Shown piece after piece: positions 37,793-51,809 of a stretch of DNA of 59,588 nucleotides; positions within the stretch are counted from its first letter, which is position 1; the number at the start of each line of letters is the position of its first letter. This stretch comes from a virus (taxonomy: Duplodnaviria > Caudoviricetes): the IMG/VR virus record IMGVR_UViG_3300022841_000019, positions 1-59,588 of that record. The stretch is one strand, 5' to 3'. The notes below the pieces were generated by a model. It did not search any database and had not been told where the DNA came from. It worked only from the letters and a program-made list of their open reading frames with translations. The position numbers were made by a program, and so were the translations under genes.

Positions 37793-37835
37793 AATTTTAC
37801 TGTTTTAATTGATTAATTTAATTTAATTTTAATAA

Positions 37836-38603: not shown

Positions 38604-38604
38604 A

Positions 38605-39135
38605 TTATTCTAGAGTTTTTAAGATATCTGGAGATATTTCATACTTGCTTTTAACGTCAGCTATAGAAAACTTACCGCTTTTAATTGCTGCTTTAGCTTT
38701 GATTAACGCTTCTCCACTTAATAAAGGTTTTTTAGCAACCACTTTATCATGCGTGTTAGTTGCGTCGCTGTCAGCTGTGTCATCTATTAAAAATAAATTA
38801 CCAAGAGCATATTTCTTACCATAAGAAGACGCGCTACCAAACTTCTGTGGCGCGTTCATACCTTTTTGGTCCATGTCAACAGCAACTAAAGCTATAGCAG
38901 TTATGTATTCTAACCCGTCAGATATCTTCGCATGAGATTCCATTATTAAATTACCGCTGATGTCTTGGATAGTTTCGTTGATAACTACAGTTACGTTGTA
39001 TTCTATTAAAAAAGGCTTTAGAGCCTCTAGAATGTCTTCAGCTGAACGATAATTGTATTTACCGAAAGAATTATACTTGCTTTTTTTAGCTTTTAAGCTT
39101 GATTGAATTTTTGAAAGTTTTTCGTTTATTTTCAT
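38605..39135 (-). CDS. ERF-family single-strand annealing protein
   Basis: YNYRSAEDI, GSASSYGKKYAL..LF.I.D..DSD. Confidence 0.85.
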   Translation of the reverse strand: MKINEKLSKIQSSLKAKKSKYNSFGKYNYRSAEDILEALKPFLIEYNVTVVINETIQDISGNLIMESHAKISDGLEYITAIALVAVDMDQKGMNAPQKFGSASSYGKKYALGNLFLIDDTADSDATNTHDKVVAKKPLLSGEALIKAKAAIKSGKFSIADVKSKYEISPDILKTLE

Positions 39136-39188
39136 ACTTATATAATTACATATTTATTGGTTGATTTACGTGTATAGCATAGCTTAAT

Positions 39189-39965
39189 TTACAGATAATC
39201 AATCACTTGCGAGTGATCTACGTTATCTATTAATCTTTGTATTGCTTGTCTTTTTAGTTCTGATACGCGAACGTAAGAACTTACTCCTTCAATGTTTAAA
39301 GCATCGGCTATATGTTTGGCTGATTTTTTATCACAGTCTAAACCATAAGACAATCTTAGAACTTCATATTCGTTACCTACTAAATGTTTTTTCATTAAAC
39401 TCTTTAGATAAGAATTTAATAACTCCATATTATACGGCTCTGATTCATCTCTTATAGATTCAGCCCAAGAACTATGGTCTTCGTTAGATTTTTCACCAGC
39501 ATTGAAAGACGTATCTATACTTGTAAATATAGAGTTAAAAAACAACGCAACCATTTTTTCATCTTTAGGGTTACTACGTATTTCATTTAACTTATGCTCT
39601 GGTATTCTCATATCTCCTCTAACCATATCTATCCTGCGTCTTATAAGACCTTTGATGCGTTTGCTAAAGAAAGATTTAAGCGTACGTTCTACATCTAAGG
39701 AGTTTTCTAAAACTTTCCAGTCTAACTTATCCACAGCCCGTATTAGTCCCTCAGAACCAATCTGTATTATGTCGTTGATACTTAATACACCGGAAGCTTG
39801 CTGTGTTGTAGAGAATTTACGGCTTAAGTTTTCTACTAAAGGTAAAAACTTTATAATCAGTTCGTCTCTAGTATACTCATTCCATTTTGATTGTTTTATA
39901 TTAGATATAGATTTTTTTAAATCTTCTTTATACCTGATATAATTCTGTACATTATAGTTTTTCAT
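39189..39965 (-). CDS. sigma-70 family RNA polymerase sigma factor (probably late)
   Basis: Region 2 ELI..FLPLV..LSRKF...DIIQIG.EGLIRAVDK, RIP; region 4 VLRLSYGL...IA..L...RVSEL...AI.RL. Confidence 0.85.
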   Translation of the reverse strand: MKNYNVQNYIRYKEDLKKSISNIKQSKWNEYTRDELIIKFLPLVENLSRKFSTTQQASGVLSINDIIQIGSEGLIRAVDKLDWKVLENSLDVERTLKSFFSKRIKGLIRRRIDMVRGDMRIPEHKLNEIRSNPKDEKMVALFFNSIFTSIDTSFNAGEKSNEDHSSWAESIRDESEPYNMELLNSYLKSLMKKHLVGNEYEVLRLSYGLDCDKKSAKHIADALNIEGVSSYVRVSELKRQAIQRLIDNVDHSQVIDYL

Positions 39966-40045
39966 AGTCTTCTATTATTTTAAAAGCTCTTGCCATTTTT
40001 TCATCATCAGCGTAGTATATATTACCTATACTAGCCATCCACTTG

Positions 40046-40309
40046 TTAAACTTGTCCGCCATATAGTTTATCTATTTTATCTTCCACTCTTTTGATCTCT
40101 ACCAGTACATCTATTAACAACTCATTGTGTTTAAGTGACTTGTTTAGATATCCTTTTAAAGCATATTTTAGGTTGTGGTAATAATAGTTATTTGTGAACT
40201 CATAAGTCTCCTTAGAACCGTCTAGTTTTGTCTTAATTCGGTCCTCGTGATACTGCAGCACTACGTTGTTATCATCACTTAGTATTCTATAGTTGTCGTC
40301 GATCTTCAT
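40046..40309 (-). CDS. hypothetical protein
   Basis: 87 aa, directly behind promoter P2. Confidence 0.6.
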   Translation of the reverse strand: MKIDDNYRILSDDNNVVLQYHEDRIKTKLDGSKETYEFTNNYYYHNLKYALKGYLNKSLKHNELLIDVLVEIKRVEDKIDKLYGGQV

Positions 40310-40326
40310 ATTTGTTTCATTTAATA

Positions 40327-40356
40327 TATTATCAATTAGCGTTCGTATTTTATTTG
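40327..40356 (-). promoter_or_regulatory. phage early-type promoter P2
   Basis: Consensus match, exact spacing. Confidence 0.75.
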
Positions 40357-40432
40357 CGATTAAGTTGTTCTTCTTGTTCTTAATGCCTGTCCTAGCGTTA
40401 CTTTTGGTCTCTTTTGAATCCTTTCTTTAGTT

Positions 40433-40756
40433 TTATCTTTCCTTGTCTCTGTCTTTGTTATCATACTTTGTTAATTTATAAGTGCTGTTTGTTGTTTTGA
40501 ACTCCACGTAAGTAGGAGTTTGTTTAATTATTTCTGTAATAAAAGTTGTTCGCCACGTGAAGAACCTATCGAATGGTGACATTAGCAGGCTAAACCCTAT
40601 CCTAGGCTCATCTCGTTCTTTTTTAAAAGTACCATCCTTATTCCATTCCAACCATGTGATATCTTTAGATTCTTTAACCAGTTTGTCATGTTCTCTAACT
40701 AGCGTCCAGTTATCTCTGATATCAACAGGTATTGTTATTTGGTTTATCTTAGTCAT
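40433..40756 (-). CDS. hypothetical protein
   Basis: ORF with W.TT.ITEI....FKT.NS.Y motif; start MTKIN. Confidence 0.55.
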   Translation of the reverse strand: MTKINQITIPVDIRDNWTLVREHDKLVKESKDITWLEWNKDGTFKKERDEPRIGFSLLMSPFDRFFTWRTTFITEIIKQTPTYVEFKTTNSTYKLTKYDNKDRDKER

Positions 40757-40964
40757 CTGTATTAAGTTTATGTTCTTCAAGTAAATCATACATTGCTTCT
40801 TTATAACTCTCTAAAGTGAAATCAGTTTCATCATGCTTCCATTTTCTCCAAAAATTATGTTTAAGTTCCCAAATAAATCCAGCCATGTCAGATGCTTTTA
40901 TGCATTCCTTATGAGATATTTTATCGTCCTCGTTATCTAAGTCAAATTCTAGTATTGCTTTCAT
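40749..40964 (-). CDS. hypothetical protein
   Basis: 71 aa, MKAILEFDL. Confidence 0.55.
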   Translation of the reverse strand: MKAILEFDLDNEDDKISHKECIKASDMAGFIWELKHNFWRKWKHDETDFTLESYKEAMYDLLEEHKLNTDD

Positions 40965-41392
40965 AATGTTACTTTTATATTACCTGTATCTTTTGTTACT
41001 AAATGAACGCTTGAGTCAACTGTTATATTACTCCTTGTTTCATCTGCTTTCCAAAATTCATGTCGAATCACTTGAATGATATCATAGGCTTCTCTACAAG
41101 ATTCATTTACTTTTTTATTATGAATACCCCAACTACCATTACGTGGGTGCGATGGATCTTGCATCAACATATTCCGTGGATGTATTAACATTGCATCTAC
41201 TGAATCTCTAACTTGATGAAACCTATTGTAATCTGTTCTTCCGTTCATTAACTTTAATTCATTAGACAAATGTCTTTCAAATGTTGGATGCTCTTTGATA
41301 ACTTCAAACTGCCCTATCCCTACTCTTGAGTAGAAATCTAATGCTCTTTGAATCAATCTTAATTGATTATTATTTAATTCTATTCTTGCCAT
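40961..41392 (-). CDS. hypothetical protein
   Basis: 143 aa, coupled. Confidence 0.6.
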   Translation of the reverse strand: MARIELNNNQLRLIQRALDFYSRVGIGQFEVIKEHPTFERHLSNELKLMNGRTDYNRFHQVRDSVDAMLIHPRNMLMQDPSHPRNGSWGIHNKKVNESCREAYDIIQVIRHEFWKADETRSNITVDSSVHLVTKDTGNIKVTL

Positions 41393-41394
41393 AA

Positions 41395-42072
41395 TTATAT
41401 TTCTAATATATTTCCGTTACTACTTAATCTACCAAACTTACCATCAGTTACCACAGACCCATTTGAGAATATAGTATTCTGAGTAGCTAATTGCATAGTT
41501 CCAGCATTAGTTATATCCACATTGTTATGGATATGACCGAAACACACCAACTTTAAGTTAGGTAATTTTAATACTCTCTTTTTTAATGCTGAACACCCGC
41601 AGAATTCTACTTCATGATTTCGGTTATACGCTAAATCCAAGATTCCTTTAGGTGGTCCATGCACCACTACAATATTTGTGTCGTCTGGTATCTGTTGCCA
41701 TACTTTATCTAACTTAGATCTTTGCTTCATAAAAGACCAATTCCCAAAAGAAGGTGTATGGGGGCTTCCCCATATCTTAACACCTTCAATAGTAATACTA
41801 TTATTTTCAAGATATATAATACCGTTATCATTAAAATCAGCTTCAATTACTAATTTAGACTCAATACTCGAATCGTGGTTTCCAGCTACAAATATCTTAT
41901 GTTCAATAGGCAGTGTTTTAAACCAATGTATAAAATCTCTTACTTCAGGTTCATTAGTATAAGGAGATCTAGGATTAGAACAGTCACCACTAAAGATGAC
42001 TATATCTATTCCTTCAGGTATTTCTAATAATTTGTGGTACGTGTGAGTATCACTTATGTGCCATATTTTCAT
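41395..42072 (-). CDS. calcineurin-like metallophosphoesterase
   Basis: SDTH, GD, GNHD, HGPP, GHIH. Confidence 0.9.
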   Translation of the reverse strand: MKIWHISDTHTYHKLLEIPEGIDIVIFSGDCSNPRSPYTNEPEVRDFIHWFKTLPIEHKIFVAGNHDSSIESKLVIEADFNDNGIIYLENNSITIEGVKIWGSPHTPSFGNWSFMKQRSKLDKVWQQIPDDTNIVVVHGPPKGILDLAYNRNHEVEFCGCSALKKRVLKLPNLKLVCFGHIHNNVDITNAGTMQLATQNTIFSNGSVVTDGKFGRLSSNGNILEI

Positions 42073-42124
42073 ATTGTTTGTTTTTAGTTTGATTTAGAAA
42101 CTATTAGTTGGTATATAGCACTAA

Positions 42125-42373
42125 TTATAAACCTTTGTTAATAGCATTTATAAGTTTTCTAACGTGCTTTGTCTTATAAAACCTTATTGGTTCTTGTGTG
42201 TTAAATATTTCTACAAAACATTTCTTTTCATCGCTATCACTAGAAATTAAACAAAATTCTTCATGCTCTTTATAAAAATCATAAATAAAATAAATAAATT
42301 CTTTGTCCCCTGATTCCTCTGCTGAAACATATTCTTTTTTAAATCCTAATTTCTCTAAATCTTTAAAATTCAT
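42125..42373 (-). CDS. hypothetical protein
   Basis: 82 aa. Confidence 0.5.
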   Translation of the reverse strand: MNFKDLEKLGFKKEYVSAEESGDKEFIYFIYDFYKEHEEFCLISSDSDEKKCFVEIFNTQEPIRFYKTKHVRKLINAINKGL

Positions 42374-42990
42374 AATTGTTGGTTTAATAGTTCTTTCTCT
42401 TTTTTTAATTCATTACTCATGTTTCTATGTATTGTCCTTGTTGAACATTCTAAAGATTTAGCTAATCCGCTAATAGTTATCTTAGATCCTAAGTCGTGAG
42501 TATCAAGCATGCATTGATAAATATCATCTTCATGTATCTTTTTACCACGACCTATAATTTGACCTACTATTTTTAATTTCTCTTCAGTGGTTAAACCGGT
42601 GAACTCATTGAAAATGATTTTTCTTAGCTTGTTTTTAGGTGGCTTTTCTAAGTCACACATGCTAACCTCATATATTATGTTGTTAAGTAGTTGCTCTGGT
42701 ATTTCAAAAGTTACAAAACCATTTGTTTTCTCAGCTATATGAGCTACTACTTGCTTAAACTGATCTTGATCAAGGCTTGGGTTTAAATACCATAATACTA
42801 ACATGTGCCATTTTAAAGACTTATATGTAGTAATCTTAGCTCTTGATCTAAACAATTCATAACATTCATTAGTTCCTTCTTCGTAATAATTACCCCATTC
42901 AAAAGTGCTGGTTGGTTTATCACTAATAGGACCTCTACGGTATATAATTCTTCGTCTATTCAATATTTCTAGATTTCTAATGTGTGACAT
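42370..42990 (-). CDS. DNA-binding protein with C-terminal HTH (candidate initiator/regulator)
   Basis: ITISGLAKSLECSTRTIHRNM HTH; start codon lies inside TGTGACA element copy 1. Confidence 0.65.
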   Translation of the reverse strand: MSHIRNLEILNRRRIIYRRGPISDKPTSTFEWGNYYEEGTNECYELFRSRAKITTYKSLKWHMLVLWYLNPSLDQDQFKQVVAHIAEKTNGFVTFEIPEQLLNNIIYEVSMCDLEKPPKNKLRKIIFNEFTGLTTEEKLKIVGQIIGRGKKIHEDDIYQCMLDTHDLGSKITISGLAKSLECSTRTIHRNMSNELKKEKELLNQQL

Positions 42991-43033
42991 AAGCCCCTTA
43001 CTAATTAGTCTAATACCCTAATGTCACAGTTTT
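42981..43033 (-). repeat. TGTGACA-N32-TGTCACA element, copy 1 (inverted relative to copies 2 and 3)
   Basis: Reverse complement: AAAACTGTGACATTAGGGTATTAGACTAATTAGTAAGGGGCTTATGTCACACA. Confidence 0.85.
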
Positions 43034-43137
43034 CAAAAGCCTCATGTGTTTCATAAAAAAATTTATTTTCAATAAATTCTTCGTAGGCTTGGTCGTGCAT
43101 TGTTTCTAATAATTCTTTAGTCCGTCCCATATACAGG

Positions 43138-43422
43138 CTATTTTAACCTGTTGTTAAGTTTTTTTATCTCAGCATCAATAATAATTGCTTTATTGTAGTT
43201 TTCATCTTCTAAAGCTTTCGCTAACTCAATTTTAAGCTCTTTAATTTTTAATAGATTTTTTTCGTTAACATCTACCTTAGTTAAAATAGCTGTGCTATCA
43301 GATACGTAATTCTGCATATCAGCCTGGAACTCAATATCCCATTCTTTTTGTTTTGTTTCAATTACATCTAAAACCTTTTCTGCAACTAAAGCTGCGAATT
43401 TATTCATTTCATTTTCAGTCAT
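43138..43422 (-). CDS. hypothetical protein with UVR-like C-terminal helical hairpin
   Basis: LAKALEDENYNKAIIIDAEIKKL. Confidence 0.55.
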   Translation of the reverse strand: MTENEMNKFAALVAEKVLDVIETKQKEWDIEFQADMQNYVSDSTAILTKVDVNEKNLLKIKELKIELAKALEDENYNKAIIIDAEIKKLNNRLK

Positions 43423-43442
43423 ATATTGTTTATTTATACAGT

Positions 43443-43472
43443 TATTATCCGTTAGTCAACGTATTTTGTTTG
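43443..43472 (-). promoter_or_regulatory. phage early-type promoter P3
   Basis: Consensus match, exact spacing. Confidence 0.75.
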
Positions 43473-43693
43473 AAACCTGTAACAAATTCAAACTTCTTGA
43501 AGATATAGTTATTAAGGAATCTACCCTTAGAACTAGCCTCAAACAAACCTCTCCAGTAAAAACGCGGCACACCTAGGTATGTATATACGCTTTTGTTGTT
43601 AAAACATACTGTCATTTCTTTTCTACTTACGTCATATTCAGCGCTGTGTATAGCACTAGAATTAACTAAAACTATTTCAATCTTGTTTTTCAT
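43445..43693 (-). CDS. KTSC domain protein
   Basis: V.SSAI....YD....M.V.F....Y.Y.GVP......L..A.SKGRF.N..I. Confidence 0.85.
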   Translation of the reverse strand: MKNKIEIVLVNSSAIHSAEYDVSRKEMTVCFNNKSVYTYLGVPRFYWRGLFEASSKGRFLNNYIFKKFEFVTGFKQNTLTNG

Positions 43694-43723
43694 TTTATTA
43701 TACTTGTTTTGTTTATATATTAA

Positions 43724-43921
43724 TTATTCTTCCTCTTCTTCTGACAATTCAAATTGTCTTAATATTATTTTAATAGCTTGTTCTCTAGTTATTGGATCAA
43801 TTCCTTCTATTTTAGAGTCTTTATCACTATAGACGCCGTGTGAATCATTCCACTCTAAGACATCTATTAGCTCTAATCTATCCATTTGAATTACTTCTTC
43901 TATTGTTATATTATGATACAT
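43724..43921 (-). CDS. small acidic protein
   Basis: 65 aa. Confidence 0.5.
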   Translation of the reverse strand: MYHNITIEEVIQMDRLELIDVLEWNDSHGVYSDKDSKIEGIDPITREQAIKIILRQFELSEEEEE

Positions 43922-44086
43922 GATGTTATTTGTATTTAGTGAAATATTAATCCTACTTTTTTAATAAATTGTTTATATTCTATCATTTATGTTATATTTA
44001 TTTAATTGTTCGTTCTCTACTACTTGAAATGTATTAATGTTATGTACAAATATTGTTTGTTCTTGCTCCTTCATTATCTTATTATT

Positions 44087-44677
44087 TTAATTATTGTTTC
44101 TTAATATGTTCCATATTATTGCTTGATACTGATATCCTTTTAAACCTAATTTGTTTGCTTTGTTTATTGTTAGTTCCTTAATTTGTTGGTATGCTAATTT
44201 ACCTATTGAAGCACTATTAATTTTTATAGACTTATTCATGCACGCCCTTAAATGCCATATATCAATCGTTAAATGTGCATCACTTAATAAAGCTATATTA
44301 TATACAAAATTATATGTTTTAAGACTCTTACTTGTTATATGTATATTGTTGTTAACAATATTAAATGCCTTAAATTTATTTGTGTGAAAAGTGCAAACTT
44401 TTATATCTTCCGCAGGTACATTGTTTTTTATTGCTTCAAAAACTTTGTAAGCATCCAATATGTTTTGTTGCCATAAATTACGTGGTGATAAAGCAGAAAT
44501 GACACTTGCAGCTATAAAAGTATTGCTATCATATTTTGTTGCAATATCTTTGCAGATATCGTTAGCATCTTTGTACCAAACTAAACCGCTTTTAAAATCT
44601 TCTTCATTAGCTAAATTAAAATAATAGTCTAAATTTTTACTAATTTTTGATAGTTGGTATCTTGTTAATTTTTTCAT
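44087..44677 (-). CDS. conserved phage protein, DNA glycosylase-like helical fold suspected
   Basis: WY..A, ALSP...W..N, TIDIW..RA, QAI.W pattern. Confidence 0.5.
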   Translation of the reverse strand: MKKLTRYQLSKISKNLDYYFNLANEEDFKSGLVWYKDANDICKDIATKYDSNTFIAASVISALSPRNLWQQNILDAYKVFEAIKNNVPAEDIKVCTFHTNKFKAFNIVNNNIHITSKSLKTYNFVYNIALLSDAHLTIDIWHLRACMNKSIKINSASIGKLAYQQIKELTINKANKLGLKGYQYQAIIWNILRNNN

Positions 44678-44690
44678 TGGTTTAGTTATT

Positions 44691-45047
44691 TTATAATATC
44701 ATTACTTTATTGGTTAATGTATCAAAAATTGCTTTTTGTTTGTTTGTTGTTGCTGCTATTAAAGCAAAACTTAAATTGTCAATGTGCAAATTAGCGTCAA
44801 TAAAATATATATTTGTTTCTGTATCCATCCATCCGCCAATGCTACAAAATTGCTTCGATTCAATTGTTTTATTAATATTATTCCTTAAATCCGTATCATT
44901 TGAAGGGTTAACGCCCTTGTATAAGTTTTTAATACTTACTATGTATCTACTTTTTGAACTATTTAATTTAATGGTGAAATTCTGTTTATTAATACAGTTA
45001 TTTAAAATTAACTGAATTTTGTCTAAATTGTTATTTAATCGTGCCAT
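44691..45047 (-). CDS. hypothetical phage protein
   Basis: 118 aa, GGW.D....YFID...NKQKAIFD. Confidence 0.55.
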   Translation of the reverse strand: MARLNNNLDKIQLILNNCINKQNFTIKLNSSKSRYIVSIKNLYKGVNPSNDTDLRNNINKTIESKQFCSIGGWMDTETNIYFIDANLHIDNLSFALIAATTNKQKAIFDTLTNKVMIL

Positions 45048-45085
45048 CTTGTTTATGTTTTATAATTTTATTGTTTTAACTCTAG

Positions 45086-45157
45086 TTTTCCCACAAGGAA
45101 TCGAACCTCGAATGTCTGCATCAAAAGCAGATGTGTTACCAATTACACCATGGGAAA
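45086..45157 (-). tRNA. tRNA-Gln(UUG)
   Basis: Acceptor TTTCCCA/TGGGAAA, D arm GTGT-AATTGGTA-ACAC, anticodon arm TCTGC-TTTTGAT-GCAGA, T arm CGAGG-TTCGATT-CCTTG; followed by CTA, not CCA. Confidence 0.92.
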
Positions 45158-45492
45158 TAATAACCGCGGGCTGTATGAGACGACAAAGTTATTGTTGAAT
45201 AACTCCCAAGTAGTTGCCAAAACTACGATTTACTCTCTCAATAGAGCGTCTTATTAGATAGCGGCTGCATTGTTCTTTTGTATACCGTCGTAATGCTTGA
45301 CAACGGATGTAAGGCTCCCACTTTCCTTACTTGTTAGTCTAAAGTTTTTCTCTTTCCAGAAGCAGGTGACTAAATTATACTTTAACCTGAGTGGTTTTAA
45401 ATGCTAATCCCGTAGATTAACCGGGCAACTTAAGGTATTGCCTTTGATGGAATTACATCCTTACCAGGTCCTCCACCCTTTGAGCGGGGACT
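45158..45492 (-). ncRNA. large multi-junction structured RNA, family unknown
   Basis: ORF-free in the supplied track; one hairpin plus three multi-way junctions, each with three hairpins; several mismatches on + become G-U pairs on -. Confidence 0.7.
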
Positions 45493-45760
45493 AGTCTAAA
45501 AGCACGTAATAAGCATCTACATTGGCTCTCCTGAACCAATTTAAACCTTTATGAAAATTATTAATTAGTTCTTTTGTTACTGACTTAGGTTGGAGTTCCA
45601 TAACTAACTGTGCCCCTATTATAAAGTCGTACATAGATAATTCTGCTCCAGTAAGATCGTAACTAGCTCCGCTGAACGGGTTAGTTACAGTTTCACCAGA
45701 CGTGTATAGCACGCCATCAAACCATTTAGGTAATAATTGTTCTTTAGTATTATTGCTCAT
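45491..45760 (-). CDS. hypothetical early protein
   Basis: NPFSG...ELS.YD...W F...N..AY..LLD. Confidence 0.6.
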   Translation of the reverse strand: MSNNTKEQLLPKWFDGVLYTSGETVTNPFSGASYDLTGAELSMYDFIIGAQLVMELQPKSVTKELINNFHKGLNWFRRANVDAYYVLLD

Positions 45761-46193
45761 TATATCCTTCATTTAATAGTTCTTCTGTTATACTTTCTAA
45801 TGCTGTGTCATAAATACTACCATATAATGAATGCATTGCCTCCATTACATAATCTTCTTCTAAATCGCCTATGAAGATTTTACCACCCCCGCTTGAGTTT
45901 TTAATTCCCTCACATAAACAACCAGCTAAATCGCGATCATAATAGTGAACGTCCTCATTTATACTTATTTTGTCAGGGTTATAGGTTGCAATAAATACTT
46001 CGTAGCCATCTTGGGTACTCTCTGTATATATATAGTAATCCAAATTCCTTTCCCAGTCATCTGTTAATTCTACATTGTGATGATCTAAAACTAAATCCAT
46101 TAGTCTTTCGTCGTCATTGCACACGTCTTCACCAAATCCACTAGCCTTTAGTCTTTCGTTAATTAATTCGATTGTAATTAGTTTATTTGTCAT
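45750..46193 (-). CDS. acidic early protein
   Basis: 147 aa, D/E-rich. Confidence 0.6.
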   Translation of the reverse strand: MTNKLITIELINERLKASGFGEDVCNDDERLMDLVLDHHNVELTDDWERNLDYYIYTESTQDGYEVFIATYNPDKISINEDVHYYDRDLAGCLCEGIKNSSGGGKIFIGDLEEDYVMEAMHSLYGSIYDTALESITEELLNEGYNEQ

Positions 46194-46202
46194 GGTTGTT
46201 TA

Positions 46203-46589
46203 TTATACGGTTAAAGATTCTTTGTTTATTTCTTTCATGCCTCTATTTTTTATTAGATAATTTTTTAGATATAGTAATCTATCTATCTCTTGCGGAATCA
46301 ATACTCTAATAGTTCCTACGGATGATCGAACCAATAACCTACCTAAGTTACGATACATGTAATCTGTCATACGTTGACGAGTTAAGTTTAACTGATAACA
46401 AGTGTGTTTATCATATGTACGTACTATACCTGATTTATATACAGCGAAAAACTCATCTCCGTATTTAAACGCTATAGTTCCGTTTTTTAATTGCCTATCA
46501 CTGGTTACATTGTTTACAGCATAGCTTGTTGTTAACTCTTTAACGAACACAGCTACTTGTAGTTCTGCGTATGATTTATAATTTCTCAT
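46203..46589 (-). CDS. hypothetical early protein
   Basis: 128 aa. Confidence 0.55.
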   Translation of the reverse strand: MRNYKSYAELQVAVFVKELTTSYAVNNVTSDRQLKNGTIAFKYGDEFFAVYKSGIVRTYDKHTCYQLNLTRQRMTDYMYRNLGRLLVRSSVGTIRVLIPQEIDRLLYLKNYLIKNRGMKEINKESLTV

Positions 46590-46794
46590 CTGTTTCTATT
46601 AATTTAGTTATGTAATTCCATATTTTTATTTCTTTCTTTGTGCCTTCTATAAGTAGTACCAACTCTCTTCTAGTTATACAACCGTAAAAACCTGCTAATA
46701 AATCTTGCTTATATGTGGACAACTCAATGTCTAACATTGTTAGCCGCGCAAACGCTTTATCGCTTGCTCTTTCTACAATCTCTTGCCTTGTCAT
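46576..46794 (-). CDS. hypothetical early protein
   Basis: Start moved to MTRQ, downstream of promoter P4. Confidence 0.55.
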   Translation of the reverse strand: MTRQEIVERASDKAFARLTMLDIELSTYKQDLLAGFYGCITRRELVLLIEGTKKEIKIWNYITKLIETDEKL

Positions 46795-46820
46795 ACTGTT
46801 TAATTCGTTTGTTATATCAT

Positions 46821-46850
46821 TATTATCTACCATAGTTCGTATTTTATTTG
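46821..46850 (-). promoter_or_regulatory. phage early-type promoter P4
   Basis: Consensus match, exact spacing. Confidence 0.75.
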
Positions 46851-46928
46851 TTTCTATTTATCTCTATTGCTTTTTAAGCCCCTTCTTAAACTCAGGCTTC
46901 AACCTACTCCATAGTGTTTTACTCATAA

Positions 46929-47237
46929 CTATTTTATTAATTTAACTAATATATTCCTTGCTTTATCAGTACTCTTTTTATCTACACCACCAATATGGAA
47001 ACTATATTCTCTGTCTAGATCAAGAGGTCTGTATTCTTTCCAATCATACACTGTAAACTGTAGGTCTTTACCTGCTTGAAAACTAAAATCAAAGTTAGTT
47101 TTATCTTCACCATCATTATAGTCATTATAAGATAGGTTGTTTTTCTTAGCTAGGTCTAGTAAACTATTAGGTGTTGTATCTATAGTTGTACCATGAAAGC
47201 TACTCTGTTCCCATTTAATTACTTCTGTTAACTTCAT
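46929..47237 (-). CDS. hypothetical early protein
   Basis: DK....F....FTVYDWK....FHIGG motif common in phages. Confidence 0.65.
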   Translation of the reverse strand: MKLTEVIKWEQSSFHGTTIDTTPNSLLDLAKKNNLSYNDYNDGEDKTNFDFSFQAGKDLQFTVYDWKEYRPLDLDREYSFHIGGVDKKSTDKARNILVKLIK

Positions 47238-47248
47238 TATTTATATTT

Positions 47249-47350
47249 TAGTAACTAGTGAGGAATCGAACCTCATACCCGTCGGTAGTCTGCAAGACTT
47301 CAAGCTCGTGAAAACGTTTACTTAATTCAAGTTGCAACCATACCTAGTTG
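47249..47350 (-). ncRNA. tRNA-like RNA with canonical T arm and acceptor stem but non-canonical body
   Basis: AACTAG/CTAGTT stem, TGAGG-TTCGATT-CCTCA, ends ACTA like the tRNA-Gln. Confidence 0.6.
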
Positions 47351-47464
47351 TCGGTTTTCGAGTTAAAGAGCCATCTACCGTAAAACTCTTGATTATATTA
47401 AAGGATCTTCGTCAGCTTAACAATTTAAAATACCATTCCCGTACTGAGCCTTTCACCGTAATCT

Positions 47465-47671
47465 TTATATAGTTATAAACAAGTCTCCAAAATATCTAAC
47501 CTCGCAAGCTGAGCATATGTCGCTGGCTGTGCCAAATCTTACGTCAGTAAAGTAGTTGTTATCTGCAAGTGTTTCCATGCACTCCTCATAAGTTCTTGGG
47601 AATTTTAATTTAAAGTCTTCCATTTTTTGGATAAACTCTGGCTTTAATCTTTGTAAAAGTGATAATTGCAT
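47465..47671 (-). CDS. hypothetical early protein
   Basis: Start MQLSLL, downstream of P5. Confidence 0.55.
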   Translation of the reverse strand: MQLSLLQRLKPEFIQKMEDFKLKFPRTYEECMETLADNNYFTDVRFGTASDICSACEVRYFGDLFITI

Positions 47672-47695
47672 AATGTTAATTTTAATATTCATATA

Positions 47696-47725
47696 TATTA
47701 TCGATCAGTGATCGTGTTTCGTTTG
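47696..47725 (-). promoter_or_regulatory. phage early-type promoter P5
   Basis: CAAA-N5-CACG-N10-GATAATA; near-identical to P6. Confidence 0.75.
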
Positions 47726-47746
47726 AAAAACGCTTGTAATGTGCGC

Positions 47747-47956
47747 TTAATACGGCTCGTTATTGTGATCCCACAGTCTATTATTGGCAAAACCCTTGCC
47801 TTTAGTACCTGATCCTTTAGATTTAACTAATACTTTGTTGTACTCTTTAATACTTAGACCCCTAGCGTAACCGTGTATAGCAACTAACGCTAAGTGGTTC
47901 ATAGATCTTTCTTTTTTATTATTCTCAAGAATTGCTAGTACCTTGTTTTTATCCAT
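47747..47956 (-). CDS. small basic early protein
   Basis: 69 aa. Confidence 0.5.
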   Translation of the reverse strand: MDKNKVLAILENNKKERSMNHLALVAIHGYARGLSIKEYNKVLVKSKGSGTKGKGFANNRLWDHNNEPY

Positions 47957-47965
47957 GTCTATTAG

Positions 47966-48151
47966 TTATTTAATGCTTTTTAAAAGTAGCTTTAACGCTT
48001 TTTTAAAGATCTTTTTATTTAATTCATCGTACTCAACGCCGTGTAGACGTACGCTAGCGGTTTGCCACTCTATATTATCAATTATGAAGTCCTTGGTTAA
48101 TATAGCTGTGTTCTCTGCTATTTCTTTTATTTTTTTATTTGACAAACTCAT
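47966..48151 (-). CDS. hypothetical early protein
   Basis: 61 aa. Confidence 0.5.
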   Translation of the reverse strand: MSLSNKKIKEIAENTAILTKDFIIDNIEWQTASVRLHGVEYDELNKKIFKKALKLLLKSIK

Positions 48152-48155
48152 AGGT

Positions 48156-48350
48156 TTAAACGGGTAAGTAAGTTAGACCTTTGTAGTTAAACCAGCTGTT
48201 AATACCGTCTTTGTCATCTATTTTATCAAATATAAAGCCGAAGTTTAAAGGTAATGATCCTACTTCATAACCTTTATATTTAACAGCGACAGATTCATTA
48301 TCTTTTTTTATTTGCAAAGTGGTTTTACTTGTAAATTTAATTTGTTTCAT
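48156..48350 (-). CDS. hypothetical early protein
   Basis: Start MKQIK, downstream of P6. Confidence 0.55.
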   Translation of the reverse strand: MKQIKFTSKTTLQIKKDNESVAVKYKGYEVGSLPLNFGFIFDKIDDKDGINSWFNYKGLTYLPV

Positions 48351-48376
48351 GGTATATTTATTTATCGTTACATATA

Positions 48377-48406
48377 TATTATCGATCAGTGATCGTATTT
48401 CGTTTG
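48377..48406 (-). promoter_or_regulatory. phage early-type promoter P6
   Basis: Consensus match, exact spacing. Confidence 0.8.
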
Positions 48407-48413
48407 AAAACAA

Positions 48414-48707
48414 CTAATCTAACTCCCAGTTTTCTTTGTTTAGGAACGATTCTACGTTCTTAGACCTATTCAAACGTTCAGCAGCATAGGTTTTATACTC
48501 GTCAAAATAATAGTCTATTAGATCTTGAGTTTCTTGCTCGCTGTAAGCTACAAACTGCTTTACGTGGTAGTCGTGTAAAAGATCTTTATCGTTACAAGTG
48601 TACTCTGTGATCGTGGATTCAGTCTGCTTTTCCAAGTTGTACTGAACGCGGCTACTAATTGTGTATAGCACGCCGCGATAGAAATTCTTTTTACTTATTG
48701 TACTCAT
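48414..48707 (-). CDS. hypothetical early protein
   Basis: 97 aa. Confidence 0.55.
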   Translation of the reverse strand: MSTISKKNFYRGVLYTISSRVQYNLEKQTESTITEYTCNDKDLLHDYHVKQFVAYSEQETQDLIDYYFDEYKTYAAERLNRSKNVESFLNKENWELD

Positions 48708-49263
48708 TATAGATCAATTTTTTAATAATACCATCTACGACTGAAACTGTAGTACCACTAACTTCTGTATTATCTTTTAGAATAAATCTCGCACGAGGTA
48801 ATTTGCTAAGACCTAAGGAAACTAGTATTTCATTTAAGCACCAATCTCGTTGTATTATCTGGAAATCACTTGCAGTAGTTTTCTTTTCACACTTAGCAAG
48901 CTCTATCTTTAAAAAGTTTATTCTATCTTCTACACTATAGCTAGACAGCTCGTTTTCAATAAATCCAATGATTGTTTTTTCCACTAAACAATAAACACCA
49001 CTCTGTAGATCAGAGTAATTGTTTTTAAATAACTTACTGTATAAATTTCTAAACTCTGAGTAGTTTGTATCATCACCACCTATTGACCATTGCATATCGC
49101 ACTCTAAGTCTTCTATGGTCCTAACTTCTTTATCACCGATTATTTGAGTGTGAATATTTCCCGTGGCTTCAACTTGCGCTGTTATAAGTTTGTTCACTTC
49201 TACTACTACATCGTAGTTAAATCTTATCCAATCTGGTTTCTTTGTAATTGCTTTAATTTTCAT
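48691..49263 (-). CDS. hypothetical early protein
   Basis: 190 aa behind P7. Confidence 0.6.
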   Translation of the reverse strand: MKIKAITKKPDWIRFNYDVVVEVNKLITAQVEATGNIHTQIIGDKEVRTIEDLECDMQWSIGGDDTNYSEFRNLYSKLFKNNYSDLQSGVYCLVEKTIIGFIENELSSYSVEDRINFLKIELAKCEKKTTASDFQIIQRDWCLNEILVSLGLSKLPRARFILKDNTEVSGTTVSVVDGIIKKLIYNEYNK

Positions 49264-49292
49264 CTTTTGTTTTATTGTATTAAATTCAGTTA

Positions 49293-49322
49293 TATTATCT
49301 ATTAGTGATCGTATTTTTATTG
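49293..49322 (-). promoter_or_regulatory. phage early-type promoter P7
   Basis: CAAT-N5-TACG-N10-GATAATA. Confidence 0.75.
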
Positions 49323-49323
49323 T

Positions 49324-49518
49324 TTAGAATAAAGAACTGTAAACACACTCGCTCACAAAATCTAAGTGATCTGAGTTTATCTCATCGAGCATTTCCTCTG
49401 ACATATCTTCACCATTATACTCTGCCGACTCAATAAAAGCATCGACAAAATCTGGGTAGTCACTTGCGTCTATTCCGTCGACACTTACGTTGGTTACTAA
49501 TTTAAAATCTATAATCAT
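49324..49518 (-). CDS. small acidic early protein
   Basis: GID..DYPDFVDAFI.SA; very acidic. Confidence 0.6.
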   Translation of the reverse strand: MIIDFKLVTNVSVDGIDASDYPDFVDAFIESAEYNGEDMSEEMLDEINSDHLDFVSECVYSSLF

Positions 49519-49838
49519 TACTCTATTTCGTTTAAGTCTTCTTTTAATCTACTTATAAAGGAATCTTCTCCATCGTCTCCTGATAAATACCAATCTATTC
49601 TGTTGACATATGCTTCCGCTTGCTTTAAGATCTTGACTGCTTTTTTAAATTCTTCTTGAATATCCTTTCTGTAAGTATAATTATATCTTTCTTCTGGATG
49701 TTCTTCAAGGTATTCATCACAAAAGGAATAAAGCTCTTTTTTAGATATCTCTTCACCTTGGCTGTCTAACGTTGTTTGGATGTTATCCGCTATTTCTCCA
49801 ATTCTAAACTGGTGGTATTCAAACATTCCTCCGCTCAT
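49518..49838 (-). CDS. hypothetical early protein
   Basis: MSGG.F.Y...IDWYLSGDDGE motif. Confidence 0.65.
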   Translation of the reverse strand: MSGGMFEYHQFRIGEIADNIQTTLDSQGEEISKKELYSFCDEYLEEHPEERYNYTYRKDIQEEFKKAVKILKQAEAYVNRIDWYLSGDDGEDSFISRLKEDLNEIE

Positions 49839-49875
49839 TTTTTCTTGTTGTTTTTATATGTATTATTTACATCGA

Positions 49876-49905
49876 TATTATCGATTACTTTACGTATTTC
49901 TACTG
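49876..49905 (-). promoter_or_regulatory. phage early-type promoter P8
   Basis: CAGT-N5-TACG-N10-GATAATA. Confidence 0.7.
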
Positions 49906-50052
49906 TAGACAGTATACTATCTCTTTATTGAGTGTATAATTCTTGACCATAACTTTAATTCTTCATTGACTTCCTTTAGTGTAAGGATTAAATTGTGCGT
50001 AAATTTTCTCATTTTTAGTATGTTTTAAAAGGTGTATAATTATTTGTTTGTA

Positions 50053-50089
50053 GAAAAGGTTAGAGAGATATAAAACTACCTCTCTGACC
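50053..50089 (-). terminator. intrinsic terminator after the first early paralog
   Basis: GGTCAGAGAGG-N10-TCTCTCTAACC-TTTTC on the minus strand. Confidence 0.7.
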
Positions 50090-50091
50090 AT

Positions 50092-50328
50092 CTAAGACTG
50101 CTCTACGATCAAGAACGGTCTTACTACTGTTGGTATTGAAGCACTTGAAGTGTAACTTTTATACTTTTCCCAGCAAGGCATTTTTTCTAGTTTCTCTTGC
50201 ATTGCAGCGAAGGCGTCGTCATGGTTGTACTTCGATACTTTTCCATTGCTGAAGGTAACTTCTATTATTTGGTTTTTACCGATTAGTGATTTTCTAATGA
50301 AAAATCTTTTTGAACTTAGTGTACTCAT
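50092..50328 (-). CDS. early protein, paralog A
   Basis: 53/76 identical residues to 50801-51031 (hand count). Confidence 0.75.
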   Translation of the reverse strand: MSTLSSKRFFIRKSLIGKNQIIEVTFSNGKVSKYNHDDAFAAMQEKLEKMPCWEKYKSYTSSASIPTVVRPFLIVEQS

Positions 50329-50370
50329 AATTTATTTATTTTAAGGTTTATATTTATTTATTTACAACTA

Positions 50371-50400
50371 TATTATCTGTTAGTGGTCGTATTTAATTTG
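50371..50400 (-). promoter_or_regulatory. phage early-type promoter P9
   Basis: Consensus match, exact spacing. Confidence 0.8.
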
Positions 50401-50458
50401 TAACTTCTTATAATTCTCATAAACTCTTTGTTTTTGTTATTAGTTTTTGTTACATATA

Positions 50459-50488
50459 TATTATCTGACGATGTTCGTATAATTTTTG
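50459..50488 (-). promoter_or_regulatory. phage early-type promoter P10
   Basis: Consensus match, exact spacing. Confidence 0.75.
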
Positions 50489-50576
50489 TACAAGTGCTAT
50501 ACACAGTGTATAATTCTTGAGCAACTCGTAGGGCGGAGTATACTCTTCCGATCTTGTTGCAGAACCAGGCTGTTGT

Positions 50577-50633
50577 AAAAGTGTGACACTAGGTAGTTAA
50601 GTATAACTAGTAAGGGGCTAATGTCACAGTTTT
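50577..50633 (+). repeat. TGTGACA-N33-TGTCACA element, copy 2
   Basis: AAAAGTGTGACACTAGGTAGTTAAGTATAACTAGTAAGGGGCTAATGTCACAGTTTT. Confidence 0.85.
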
Positions 50634-50772
50634 AAGATGAAGATCCGAAGGCTTCTATAGCTCTTTCGATTGTCAATTGATCTTCAGTTTTAAAGACCTT
50701 CTCTTCTGATTGCCAGAAAGCAGACTCATATGTCGATCCATCTGATCTTGTTATTGTTTTTATTATATACAT
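50632..50772 (-). CDS. 46-aa early protein
   Basis: MYIIKTITRSDGSTYESAFWQSEEKVFKTEDQLTIERAIEAFGSSS*, translated by hand. Confidence 0.45.
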   Translation of the reverse strand: MYIIKTITRSDGSTYESAFWQSEEKVFKTEDQLTIERAIEAFGSSS

Positions 50773-50800
50773 ATTATTTAGTTTAGATTATTTGAAAGTA

Positions 50801-51031
50801 TTAGTCTGTGATTAACACAGATCTAACACTCACTGGAATACTTGCGCTTGAAGTATACGATTTGTATTTCTCCCAACAATTCATACTGTTCAATTTATCT
50901 TTCATAACATCATATGCCTGGTCGTGATTATACTTCGATACATTACCATTTTTGAATGTAACTTCTATGATCTGATTTTGACCGATTAATGACTTTCTTA
51001 CTAAGAATCTTTTTGATTTTAAAATTTCCAT
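50801..51031 (-). CDS. early protein, paralog B
   Basis: Paralog of 50092-50328; first gene of the early arm. Confidence 0.75.
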   Translation of the reverse strand: MEILKSKRFLVRKSLIGQNQIIEVTFKNGNVSKYNHDQAYDVMKDKLNSMNCWEKYKSYTSSASIPVSVRSVLITD

Positions 51032-51074
51032 TTGACTTGATTTTATTATTATTATTATTATTTATATTCAACTA

Positions 51075-51104
51075 TATTATCTGATAGATGTTGTAGATTA
51101 TTTG
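51075..51104 (-). promoter_or_regulatory. phage early-type promoter P11
   Basis: CAAA-N5-TACA-N10-GATAATA. Confidence 0.65.
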
Positions 51105-51143
51105 AGGTTAAAATTTTGATTATTATTATTTTAATTACATAGA

Positions 51144-51173
51144 TATTATCTGAGACCAGCAGTAGAAAGCTTG
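51144..51173 (-). promoter_or_regulatory. phage early-type promoter P12
   Basis: CAAG-N5-TACT-N10-GATAATA. Confidence 0.6.
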
Positions 51174-51417
51174 TATGCTATACATTTTCCTACGGAAAAA
51201 GAAATGCGATCGCGATAGTAGTCTCGTAATAAAAACGTGAAATACATACCGAAAACGATAACAAAACGTGAAAAACCATACGATTACCGAAAAAACACAG
51301 GGGGACCCGGCAAATTGAAACGTATTTGGGTTTTGAAGCAGGAGCTCTACGGTAGAGGGCAACCCCCTAGTTCTAGACATTTAACAAAAATTTTTTAGAA
51401 AAAAATTACACCAGCAT

Positions 51418-51470
51418 AAAACTGTGACATTAGGCTATTAGATATATATAGTAAGGGGCTATTGTCACAC
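51418..51470 (+). repeat. TGTGACA-N33-TGTCACA element, copy 3
   Basis: AAAACTGTGACATTAGGCTATTAGATATATATAGTAAGGGGCTATTGTCACAC. Confidence 0.85.
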
Positions 51471-51527
51471 TGTTGGTCACTTGTAAGAGTTTTTATTAAC
51501 ATGTAAGTATTAAAGGTATAATAATAC

Positions 51528-51809
51528 ATGATTAAAATGGGTAAACAGAAATTAAGTCCTGTCGCTGCTAAAGCGAAAGCAGTTAGAGATTTAGCTTACG
51601 CTAACACAGATAATAGAAAAGCTAAGAGAGCGGATAGTCAGATGAAGAGGAGAGAAGCTGTGAAGAGTAAAGGGGTTGCTTTTTTAATAGGTAAGGATTA
51701 TGATCACAATACAGGTAAATTTGTGTCATCGTCACACAATAGAGGTGGTACGCAAAGCAAGAATAAGAAAGATGGTACAAAAGCGGAGTATAAGCAAAGC
51801 AAAAAATAA
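51528..51809 (+). CDS. small basic protein with minimal HNH-like motif
   Basis: KDYDH....VSSSHNRG; first gene of the late arm. Confidence 0.55.
   Translation: MIKMGKQKLSPVAAKAKAVRDLAYANTDNRKAKRADSQMKRREAVKSKGVAFLIGKDYDHNTGKFVSSSHNRGGTQSKNKKDGTKAEYKQSKK

Follow-up and report, generated by a model that had tools for sequence, protein, structure and literature searches.

What does a palindromic element of 46-47 bp do that a phage carries once across the start codon of a gene encoding a helix-turn-helix (HTH) protein and again at the opposite border of its early genes? We addressed this question in a complete 59.6-kb (59,588 nt) viral record of an uncultured phage, here called the window, which by sequence comparison is kin to Flavobacterium and Cellulophaga podophages. 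An ORF scan recognised genes for a primase-helicase, an ERF recombinase, a PDDEXK-like nuclease and a ribonucleotide reductase. The 3068-aa ORF of the window lacks a DxDxD motif like that of the crAss virion polymerase, and no RNA run contains the sequence.

Three copies of the element and their neighbourhood

The pattern TGTGACA-N{25,45}-TGTCACA matches the 59588 bases at 42983-43028, 50582-50628 and 51423-51469 and nowhere else, and none of 100 dinucleotide-preserving shuffles of the window reached three matches (mean 0), bearing out the three copies with inverted 7-bp ends reported in the first-pass annotation. The heptamers are separated by 32, 33 and 33 bp in copies 1, 2 and 3. The sequence TAGTAAGGGGCT occurs exactly three times in the window, once per copy; with up to two mismatches it has 5 matches compared to 4.5 expected, so that only the exact 12-mer in its context is notable. 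This 12-mer, which had been described as invariant, and the shared TAGG box do not vary within this genome but do so across 98 aligned copies from relatives.

Copy 1 (42983..43028, minus strand) is a 46-bp quasi-palindrome with an orientation opposite to that of copies 2 and 3. As first noted, the ATG of the 206-aa HTH ORF (42370..42990, minus strand) falls within it, namely in the outward arm (read on the minus strand as AGTAAGGGGCTTA-TGTCACA), where the TG of this codon forms the first two bases of the heptamer. The last codons (..ENCDIRVLD-stop) of a 41-aa ORF (43005..43130, minus strand) cross the inner arm; a similar ORF (MGRTKEL..) is present in some relatives only. Copy 3 (51423..51469, plus strand) is the outermost copy and lies at the early/late strand-divergence point with its GTAAGGGGCT arm towards the late genes, 58 bp before the first plus-strand ORF (51528). 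Copies 1 and 3 border an early block of 8.4 kb and are inverted repeats of each other at this distance (25 nt at 96%). Copy 2 (50582..50628, plus strand), oriented as copy 3, had also been assigned to the divergence point, but is located 841 bp deeper in the early block, where one early transcription unit gives way to another. It shows 79% identity to copy 3 over 58 nt, adjoins a paralogue of the gene beside copy 3 (78-aa and 76-aa ORFs) and probably arose together with the tandem duplication of the 76/78-aa gene.

Two repeated promoter-like motifs are found around these copies. The early-promoter-like motif, P_E, is present 12 times in the window, always on the minus strand, from 37822 to 51153. 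Two P_E motifs (51048..51153, minus strand) head the first early unit, ~270-370 bp from copy 3. Directly upstream of the HTH gene there is no promoter-like motif of its own kind, the nearest P_E being at 43406..43474 (minus strand). Just upstream of the HTH-proximal copy, 19 of 52 relatives carry a lineage-specific hairpin. The late-promoter-like motif GTAAGTATTAAAGGTATAAT (51503..51522, plus strand) lies 33 nt outward of copy 3, before the first late-strand gene, which encodes a basic 93-aa ORF (51528..51809, plus strand) for which relatives keep an MGKQKLSP ATG start (51540). In relatives this motif is found within 100 nt outward of 12/49 distal copies compared to inward of 1/52, at offsets clustering at 22-24, 32-34 and 46. 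A candidate for its reader is the phage sigma-70-family factor encoded in the middle gene block (39189..39965, minus strand). The element itself contains neither a P_E nor a late-type motif.

Conservation, geometry and polarity in related phages

From 185 relatives found we fetched the best 80 and compared these 80 loci. The position of copy 1 is kept, the HTH start codon being overlapped by the element in 77/80 loci. With nhmmer the element was detected at the HTH start in 68/80; ten of the 12 misses were inspected, and nine of these have a diverged copy at this place. In locus L031 an inserted HNH cassette has shifted the element 1.1 kb from the HTH start, and L034 and L036 were judged to be displaced likewise from identical hit coordinates. 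Element and gene co-occur: each of the 12 records with an element and a completeness of at least 90% encodes the HTH protein, and the more distant relative MW202828.1 (TerL 64% identical) has neither. This co-occurrence is confounded by common ancestry. One to three further copies are located 5-10 kb upstream of the HTH-proximal copy and are inverted to it in 51/51 cases. Searched with the strict pattern, 12 near-complete relatives have one to three matches apiece. Almost all of these matches are either at the HTH start or 5-10 kb upstream of it; the others include two look-alikes without the AG..CT features, and a single genome (G039) has one extra copy ~18 kb from the HTH gene.

Alignment of 98 copies from relatives yields the consensus AAAsTGTGACAwwAGsnnnTTAAg..(A/T-rich)..wAGTAAnrGGCTAwTGTCACAsTTTT. 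No variation is seen in the columns GAC, G, TA, C and GTC, of which GAC/GTC and G/C are symmetric, and the inner and outer heptamers are equally conserved. Among 70 copies with exact heptamers 25, 26 and 19 are 46, 47 and 48 bp long, with the heptamer centres 39-41 bp apart; two inverted ~20-bp half-sites (TGTGACA-ww-AGsC-nn-TTAm) lie around a short A/T-rich centre. The palindrome also has a polarity: all 51 distal copies match the arm profiles of the HTH-proximal copies only if read outward, the GTAA-bearing arm pointing outward in 51/51. Across the 98 copies 72.1% of cells are paired compared to a shuffle mean of 74.6%, the observed covariation score was reached by 500/500 column shuffles, and there are no compensatory base-pair changes. 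Sequence being kept without compensatory changes fits a protein site on duplex DNA and not a hairpin; comparative sequence analysis suggests that the element is most likely a protein-binding site on double-stranded DNA.

The HTH protein

The 206-aa protein belongs to a virus-only, uncharacterised family and, judging from its AlphaFold2 model (mean pLDDT 84.5), is built to bind DNA. In the model an N-terminal basic segment and a three-helix bundle, making the N-terminal part mostly helical, are followed by a C-terminal tri-helical HTH, in agreement with the helical domain plus C-terminal HTH initially read from the sequence. The C-terminal part from residue 148 to 206 can be superposed on HTH heads of the TetR/IdeR type (best Z 6.6, rmsd 2.7, 53 residues aligned), and family comparison reveals invariant basic segments. 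Pfam gives only a sub-threshold match to HTH_11 (18.4 bits compared to a cut-off of 25); NCBIfam, PHROGs and PDB sequence searches give no match, no named regulator family (CI/Cro HTH_3, TetR, MarR etc.) is matched above threshold, and structure searches returned no fold relative indicating a function.

The element as a proposed operator of the HTH protein

The reading we prefer, to which we give an even chance of being right, is that the copies are operator sites of the HTH protein. The element is a palindrome with conserved symmetric half-sites and one site lies at the putative regulator's own gene, both of which are features of operators; the half-site distance of ~40 bp is unusual for a simple dimeric one. 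The overlap with the HTH start codon across relatives, the presence of the gene in the near-complete element-bearing records and the absence of both in MW202828.1 fit the first-pass proposal of cognate sites of an autoregulated protein. What the sequences show is the sites, how they are conserved and oriented, and that they are linked to the gene; from this we infer that the HTH protein binds the element, that it acts by repression or activation, and when it does so.

According to this model the HTH gene is probably read from the early promoter ~420 bp upstream, and its product would accumulate and then bind the copies of the element. Occupation of the copy over the HTH start would create a roadblock to incoming RNA polymerase and so limit the output of the HTH gene and of the five genes that follow it without promoters of their own. 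Copy 2, between early units, would be bound as well. At the outermost copy the outer edge is 33 bp upstream of the late-promoter-like motif and the site centre ~80 bp before the predicted late start, so that a bound regulator could act on the first late promoter. In this way the element marks both borders of the early block, always with the same arm outward. Copy 3 is ~270 bp from the nearest early promoter and therefore cannot repress it by occlusion, and the four other plus-strand late-promoter-like motifs of the window are without an element, which is thus no general late switch.

Alternative explanations

An outward-facing promoter inside the element, with or without an operator, is an explanation we regard as rather unlikely. 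Here, a -35-like box (GTGACA) would be formed by the inner heptamer, and a -10-like box would end in the wAGT from the conserved AGTAA. With a start point a few bases short of the outer heptamer, the products would be an HTH mRNA nearly devoid of a leader in one direction and the late transcript in the other, read by the host RNA polymerase or the phage sigma factor. The constant outward direction of the GTAA-bearing arm suits a promoter, as does GTGACA-17-TATAGT (10 of 12), which a sigma-70-style scan finds inside copy 3 reading outward; the other heptamer match of this quality, GTGACA-16-TATACT in copy 2, points inward to the early genes. If the hairpins upstream of the HTH-proximal copy end early transcripts, as they could, a separate promoter would be required there for the HTH gene. 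According to a preprint (bioRxiv 10.1101/2020.03.07.982082), E. coli sigma-70 polymerase reads -35/-10-like blocks in the middle promoters of a Cellulophaga phage. However, applying a -10 criterion (A at -11, T at -7, four or more of six positions matched, 16-18 bp spacer) we found outward boxes in 31/51 distal and 21/47 proximal copies and inward boxes in 18/51 and 32/47, and thus no directional enrichment. A plain promoter also gives no reason for the equal conservation of the two heptamers, since the outer one would be located past the start. The late genes own a recurring motif, one copy of it next to copy 3, the element resembles neither of the repeated promoter-like motifs of the genome, and copy 2 would fire antisense into early genes.

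It is similarly doubtful, and in our judgement unlikely, that the copies are replication origins with the HTH protein as initiator or origin-binding protein, inverted boxes flanking a melting A/T-rich centre and the copy at the HTH start doubling as an autoregulatory site. The phage encodes replication genes, a block of which is headed by the HTH gene, yet the scanned ORFs of the window include no recognised DNA polymerase or initiator. The cumulative GC skew is lowest at ~50-51 kb, in the region of copies 2 and 3, but this minimum coincides with the coding-strand switch, an equally good explanation for it. In a genome with 65-70% A+T along its whole length, an A/T-rich centre does not stand out. 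The origin/initiator pair suggested in the first-pass annotation is not supported, each copy being a single palindrome lacking iterons or tandem sites, and a site over a start codon within a transcription unit is typical of regulation. The proposed likeness to ColE2-type Rep is within the noise: the N-terminal bundle weakly resembles primase helper domains (Z 3.5-4.1) and the ColE2-P9 Rep DNA-binding domain (3vw4_B; rank 32, Z 3.4, rmsd 6.8) in a search with a best Z of 5.0, these matches being below the tool's stated noise level. Rep, DnaA, helicase-loader and primase families were not found in the HTH protein or 15 distant homologues, and fused forms of more than 256 aa are absent among the best 150 of 377 family representatives.

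Less probable still is that the early block is looped by the multi-module HTH protein bridging the inverted border sites, or that the palindromes are origins of the herpes-oriS type. A loop of this kind would shut away the dozen early promoters and place the set-up of the first late promoter at its base, making one small protein and two to four sites a whole-block early-to-late switch. If the oriS-like reading were true, the recogniser would be a new kind of origin-binding protein.

We consider it very improbable that the copies serve in recombination, with inversion of the 8.4-kb early block, or in packaging, or that they are genome ends. As inverted repeats, copies 1 and 3 would suit an inversion, and the C-terminal HTH of some family members gives weak matches to the resolvase-type HTH_7, but catalytic families of resolvases, integrases and transposases were not found in the HTH protein (E up to 0.01), and the mostly helical N-terminal part of the model has no match to a recombinase core. 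In 53 related assemblies, every one of the 117 P_E motifs upstream of the HTH gene has the orientation of this gene, and contigs from four public runs, which can hide rare forms, are collinear across the three copies, their only joint being an unrelated 378-bp indel without strand change; these data speak against the inversion raised in the first-pass annotation. The packaging sites it had also considered fare no better: 21/50 loci with the motif are at most 1 kb away from a contig end, but these ends fall at varied points in the repeat-rich first kilobase of the early block, the two relatives with assembled terminal repeats end at different places relative to the element, and the TerL gene and the small ORF upstream of it are 10 kb off.

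Equally remote is a hairpin or cruciform, e.g. a bidirectional intrinsic terminator of A-tract, stem and T-tract insulating the early block, for although flanks often read AAAAs...sTTTT and the folding of the single strands is better than that of shuffles (z -3.7, -5.8, -1.9), column shuffles exceed the copies in pairing and covariation, inner arms often fail to complement each other (e.g. AGCCCC opposite ACCCT), the heptamer cores are conserved as sequence, a terminator scan flags 0/3 copies, and A/T tracts are absent from the HTH-proximal copies.

Comparison with known systems

Autoregulated HTH regulators with palindromic operators are exemplified by lambda CI and Cro, and roadblock sites within transcription units by PurR and CcpA. 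The element shares with these the inverted half-sites, a site at the own gene, few sites in control regions per genome and the HTH protein. It differs in size, being 46-48 bp with cores ~40 bp apart compared to 14-20 bp in total, in covering a start codon instead of a recognisable promoter, in its fixed polarity and in an unmatched protein family. In Bacillus phage phi29 the sites of p4 lie between divergent early (A2b/A2c) and late (A3) promoters. Both systems have inverted-repeat sites between oppositely transcribed early and late genes, with the site centre ~80 bp upstream of a late start, which in our phage is only predicted, and in both one small phage protein would do both jobs. No homology to the p4 system was seen. 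Unlike the p4 sites, the element is not seen to overlap an early promoter (nearest P_E ~270 bp away), and a further site, at a distance of 8.4 kb, covers the start codon of the putative regulator.

Herpes simplex oriS, bound by UL9, is a palindromic origin with two inverted initiator boxes and an A/T-rich spacer. Compared to oriS/UL9 and to ColE2 Rep with its origin (PDB 3vw4), the element is alike in its ~45 bp with two inverted boxes and an A/T-rich centre in its several copies per genome and in its location between divergent genes, but differs in that the HTH protein has no helicase or primase domain and likeness to ColE2 Rep stops at Z 3.4. The middle promoters of the crAss-like Cellulophaga phage phi14:2, as described in the preprint (bioRxiv 10.1101/2020.03.07.982082), are extended multi-block motifs with -35/-10-like parts; the two systems share this design and come from Flavobacteriia phages. 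The phi14:2 motifs head many middle genes, whereas the element is palindromic and present two to four times per genome; the many-copy motifs of the window genome are the separate P_E and late-type motifs. The proposed logic of controlling gene timing by docking sites is familiar; the sequence of the site and the protein family are new.

Results

Copies of the element and gene layout

Searching the 59,588-bp window for TGTGACA-N{25,45}-TGTCACA returns matches at 42983-43028 (copy 1), 50582-50628 (copy 2) and 51423-51469 (copy 3) only, 100 shuffles of the window contain none, and TAGTAAGGGGCT occurs exactly three times, once in each copy, bearing out the three elements proposed in the first-pass annotation. 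The inverted copy 1 covers the start codon of the gene for the 206-aa HTH protein (ORF 42370..42990, minus strand), as had also been proposed, its outer heptamer starting with the TG of the ATG. Copies 2 and 3 had both been placed at the divergence point; this holds for copy 3, which lies at the strand switch, but not for copy 2, which is located 841 bp inside the early block. Copy 2 seems to belong to a tandem duplication because it adjoins a 78-aa paralogue (50092-50328, minus strand) of the 76-aa gene after copy 3 (50801-51031, minus strand), each of these small early genes being downstream of one element copy, and the arrangement indicates that a gene-plus-element unit was probably duplicated in tandem.

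Two further repeats were noted in this region. The box GTAGGRCGGAGTMTACTCTTCCG, an imperfect palindrome at 50528-50552, is conserved near the distal copies, i.e. those 5-10 kb upstream of the HTH gene, of six related loci (L021, L037, L038, L041, L051, L062) at a distance of at most about 60 nt, the side of the element varying among genomes. Two direct repeats of AAAACGTGAAAnAC..ATAC, 33 bp apart, lie at 51233-51300 in the non-coding divergence region of 500 bp. Near them is a GC-rich stem with a minus-strand T-run, whose folding is not above that of shuffles (z -0.76), and a small RNA in the non-coding stretch 51154-51417 was rejected on this fold result.

The 59,588 bp are the entire IMG/VR virus record, classed as linear and estimated to be 93% complete. 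Late and structural genes run on the plus strand from 51.5 kb round to 28.8 kb (GroEL/GroES, endolysin, terminase, portal, capsid and tail proteins and a 3068-aa ORF). The early block extends on the minus strand from 51.0 down to 43.0 kb with about 25 small ORFs and a tRNA-Gln (anticodon TTG, 45085-45157, minus strand). It is followed on the same strand, from 43.0 down to 29.3 kb, by the HTH gene, a phosphoesterase, a sigma-70-family factor (39189..39965), an ERF recombinase, a PDDEXK-like (DUF3799) protein, a primase-helicase, a MazG-like pyrophosphatase and a ribonucleotide reductase. Contigs of the public runs X1, X2 and X4 have a form skipping 378 bp at 46868-47247, which removes the 102-aa ORF 46929..47237 and therefore represents presence/absence variation in the early block. 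The 3068-aa ORF (19566-28772, plus strand) ends the structural block and has a 3859-aa counterpart at the same position in MW202828.1; it was discarded as a candidate virion RNA polymerase, having no match in Pfam, PHROGs or NCBIfam and no DxDxD motif.

The terminase large subunit shares 45% identity with Flavobacterium 'elemo' podophages and Cellulophaga phages and 64% with the uncultured phage MW202828.1, and 89 matching phage records include 68 from Flavobacterium, 15 from Cellulophaga, two from Tenacibaculum and one from Maribacter. This terminase kinship suggests a host within the Flavobacteriia. The public runs containing the window sequence are labelled salt-lake metagenome, and the 24 runs listed include no RNA data set.

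Conservation of the element with the HTH gene

Of the 185 relatives of the HTH protein in the viral contig collection, the 80 best loci were retrieved for comparison. A profile built from the element matches 133 of 134 sequences, three of them pieces of the window, and the element's 21-nt core is found exactly in 50 stretches of the collection. The profile places a copy at the HTH start in 68 of the 80 loci, and inspection of ten of the remaining 12 showed that nine carry a diverged copy at that position, so that the element covers the HTH ATG in 77 of 80 loci. In L031 the copy lies 1.1 kb upstream of the gene because a 143-aa HTH ORF and a 174-aa HNH-like ORF have been inserted between the two, and L034 and L036 share its profile-match coordinates. 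The insertion (L031 8863-10000, same in L034 and L036) sits exactly between element and HTH coding sequence, its 143-aa ORF having a C-terminal HTH, and the HTH gene of these three loci has gained a new 5' end there.

Related loci carry one to three further copies 5-10 kb upstream of the HTH gene and none within 10 kb downstream of it (80 loci). The 12 near-complete relatives have one to three strict-pattern copies per genome, nearly all at the HTH start or 5-10 kb upstream, the exceptions being two look-alikes without the AG..CT features and, in the relative G039, an extra copy some 18 kb away from the HTH gene. The HTH gene is present in 22 of 48 records with the exact motif and in 12/12 of those at least 90% complete, while MW202828.1, which has the same overall layout as the window, lacks both protein and element. 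Gene and element thus co-occur in relatives, which fits the proposed pairing but is confounded by their common ancestry. A tblastn search of the HTH protein against 50,697 phage records gave no match, and therefore no cultured relative is known.

A four-sequence alignment retrieved one locus with a distant homologue, L135, in which the gene follows GroEL/GroES and which has no such element, and the distant homologue P0121 as sole query retrieved none; this single case is too few to judge co-variation of site and protein. The intergenic region of L135 (1088-1175) holds four to five tandem direct repeats of AGTCGCATCGTGyC, whose GTCGCA core is like heptamer variants of the element, a resemblance that, as a single case, may be coincidence.

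Anatomy and polarity of the element

In 98 aligned copies the arms follow TGTGACA-ww-AGsC-nn-TTA(A/C) around a variable, A/T-rich centre; GAC, G, TA, C and GTC do not vary, with GAC/GTC and G/C as mirror partners. Copies with exact heptamers (n=70) are 46 bp (25), 47 bp (26) or 48 bp (19) long. The element has not been selected as a hairpin. Pairing (72.1%) is lower than in column shuffles and so is covariation, 500/500 shuffles reaching the observed score, and the inner arms are often non-complementary.

The two arms differ slightly and this difference is kept, since arm profiles made from proximal copies, those at the HTH start, fit 51/51 distal copies in the outward orientation only. In every case, therefore, the AGTAAnnGGCT arm is turned outward from the early block, pointing to the HTH gene at one border and to the late genes at the other.

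Hairpins of -8 kcal/mol or stronger, formed by upstream flank and inner arm, occur at 19/52 proximal versus 1/49 distal copies of relatives (L052, L029, L057, L073, L058, L053 and others) and start 14 nt upstream of the copy, reaching 24 nt inside it. Their stems are lineage-specific (GGGG/CCCC, GAGG/CCTC, TATACAG/CTGTATA) with no T-tract after them, and the window's own copy 1 has no such hairpin.

The HTH protein

The AlphaFold2 model of the HTH protein (pLDDT 84.5) shows a basic, highly conserved and poorly structured N-terminus, a helical bundle at about residues 54-117, a basic conserved linker and a tri-helical HTH at 149-206. Pfam returns HTH_11 alone, below threshold, and profile searches in PHROGs, NCBIfam and PDB sequences gave nothing useful. 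The HTH head is the sole part with fold neighbours, heads of the TetR/IdeR type (best Z 6.6, VIA-align); the N-terminal part modelled alone stays within noise (best Z 5.0), ColE2 Rep ranking 32nd with Z 3.4, and Foldseek found no match at E up to 0.001 for the full-length model or the N-terminal domain. The family comprises 377 representative clusters (E up to 0.001), with a length of at most 256 aa in all of the best 150; 15 distant members have generic HTH matches only, and the ESM Atlas returns only unnamed clusters of the protein itself, 89-100% viral.

Promoter-like motifs around the element

An early/middle promoter-like motif of roughly 35 nt (..CAAAnnAAATACGAnCAnTnAnnGATAATATA..), termed P_E, has 12 copies between 37822 and 51153, all on the minus strand and 20-70 nt ahead of early/middle ORFs (e.g. 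48339-48408, 50336-50402); the nearest copy upstream of the HTH gene lies at 43406-43474. Upstream of the HTH gene in 53 related loci, 117/117 P_E motifs are on the same strand as that gene.

A late-type motif, GTAAnkA-N6-7-kATArw, has six matches versus 1.26 expected, the pattern having been derived from four of them, and five (275, 8945, 51503, 53320 and 57750, plus strand) lie in late intergenic regions. One is 33 nt outward of copy 3, immediately ahead of the first late gene, and in relatives the motif occurs within 100 nt outward of 12/49 distal copies versus inward of 1/52. The offsets cluster at 22-24, 32-34 and 46 nt, and there is a hint of helical phasing between motif and element, the cases being few and related. 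The motif may be a promoter recognised with the help of the phage sigma factor (39189..39965); a weight-matrix search yielded little apart from the sites it was trained on. Neither P_E nor the late-type motif occurs within the element.

Discussion

The sequence data fit a model in which the element would be a protein site on duplex DNA, functionally tied to the HTH gene. We give about even chances to the copies being operators of the HTH protein that combine three roles. The copy over the start codon would mediate autoregulation by blocking the path of transcription that arrives from the P_E 420 bp upstream, the outermost copy would control the first late promoter and the internal copies would keep early units apart.

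That the element instead contains an outward-facing promoter appears unlikely to us. Its fixed polarity and a sigma-70-like match reading outward in copy 3 agree with such a promoter, and the lineage-specific hairpins just upstream of 19/52 proximal copies keep the idea alive, but the other heptamer-based match of this type, in copy 2, reads inward, and -10-like boxes are not more frequent in the outward than in the inward direction (31 versus 18 of 51 distal, 21 versus 32 of 47 proximal copies). A promoter also leaves the equally conserved outer heptamer unexplained. About as unlikely is a replication origin with the HTH protein as its origin-binding protein, rated low because its positive support is limited to architecture, although the GC-skew minimum falls at 50-51 kb and the scanned ORFs include no recognisable polymerase or initiator. 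Inversion of the early block between copies, suggested in the first-pass annotation, is disfavoured, as the HTH protein matches no recombinase family, every early motif in the 53 assemblies is co-oriented with the HTH gene and public-run contigs (Logan) are collinear across the copies. The data give no indication of the packaging sites suggested alongside it, or of genome termini; 21/50 motif-bearing loci have a contig end no more than 1 kb away, and these break at scattered points where the early block begins, a repeat-rich stretch. A terminator or cruciform is improbable in view of the absent covariation and a terminator scan that flagged none of the three copies.

To our knowledge, the timing of gene expression has hardly been studied in phages of Flavobacteriia and other Bacteroidota, and promoters of these phages are unlike textbook ones. 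We found no paper describing a TGTGACA inverted repeat in a bacteriophage, and, among the titles and abstracts listed for the related Flavobacterium phages, none dealt with regulation. A related transcription study is the phi14:2 preprint (bioRxiv 10.1101/2020.03.07.982082).

The lineage is common in metagenomes, judging by its 185 relatives among the collected viral contigs and 377 family clusters, and offers a compact candidate regulator-site pair of a 206-aa protein and a 47-bp site with polarity fixed at both early-block borders. If the HTH protein binds the element, a virus-only protein family would obtain a function, the site would provide a landmark to annotate early, middle and late modules of uncultured phages and an orthogonal regulator-operator tool for Bacteroidota might result; if it is merely an ordinary autoregulatory operator, the gain would be modest. 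The logic is a familiar one, in which an HTH regulator has palindromic sites both at its own gene and where early genes meet late ones. The details that are new are a site geometry of 47 bp, a start codon lying within the site, a strictly outward polarity at the two early-block borders and the protein family.
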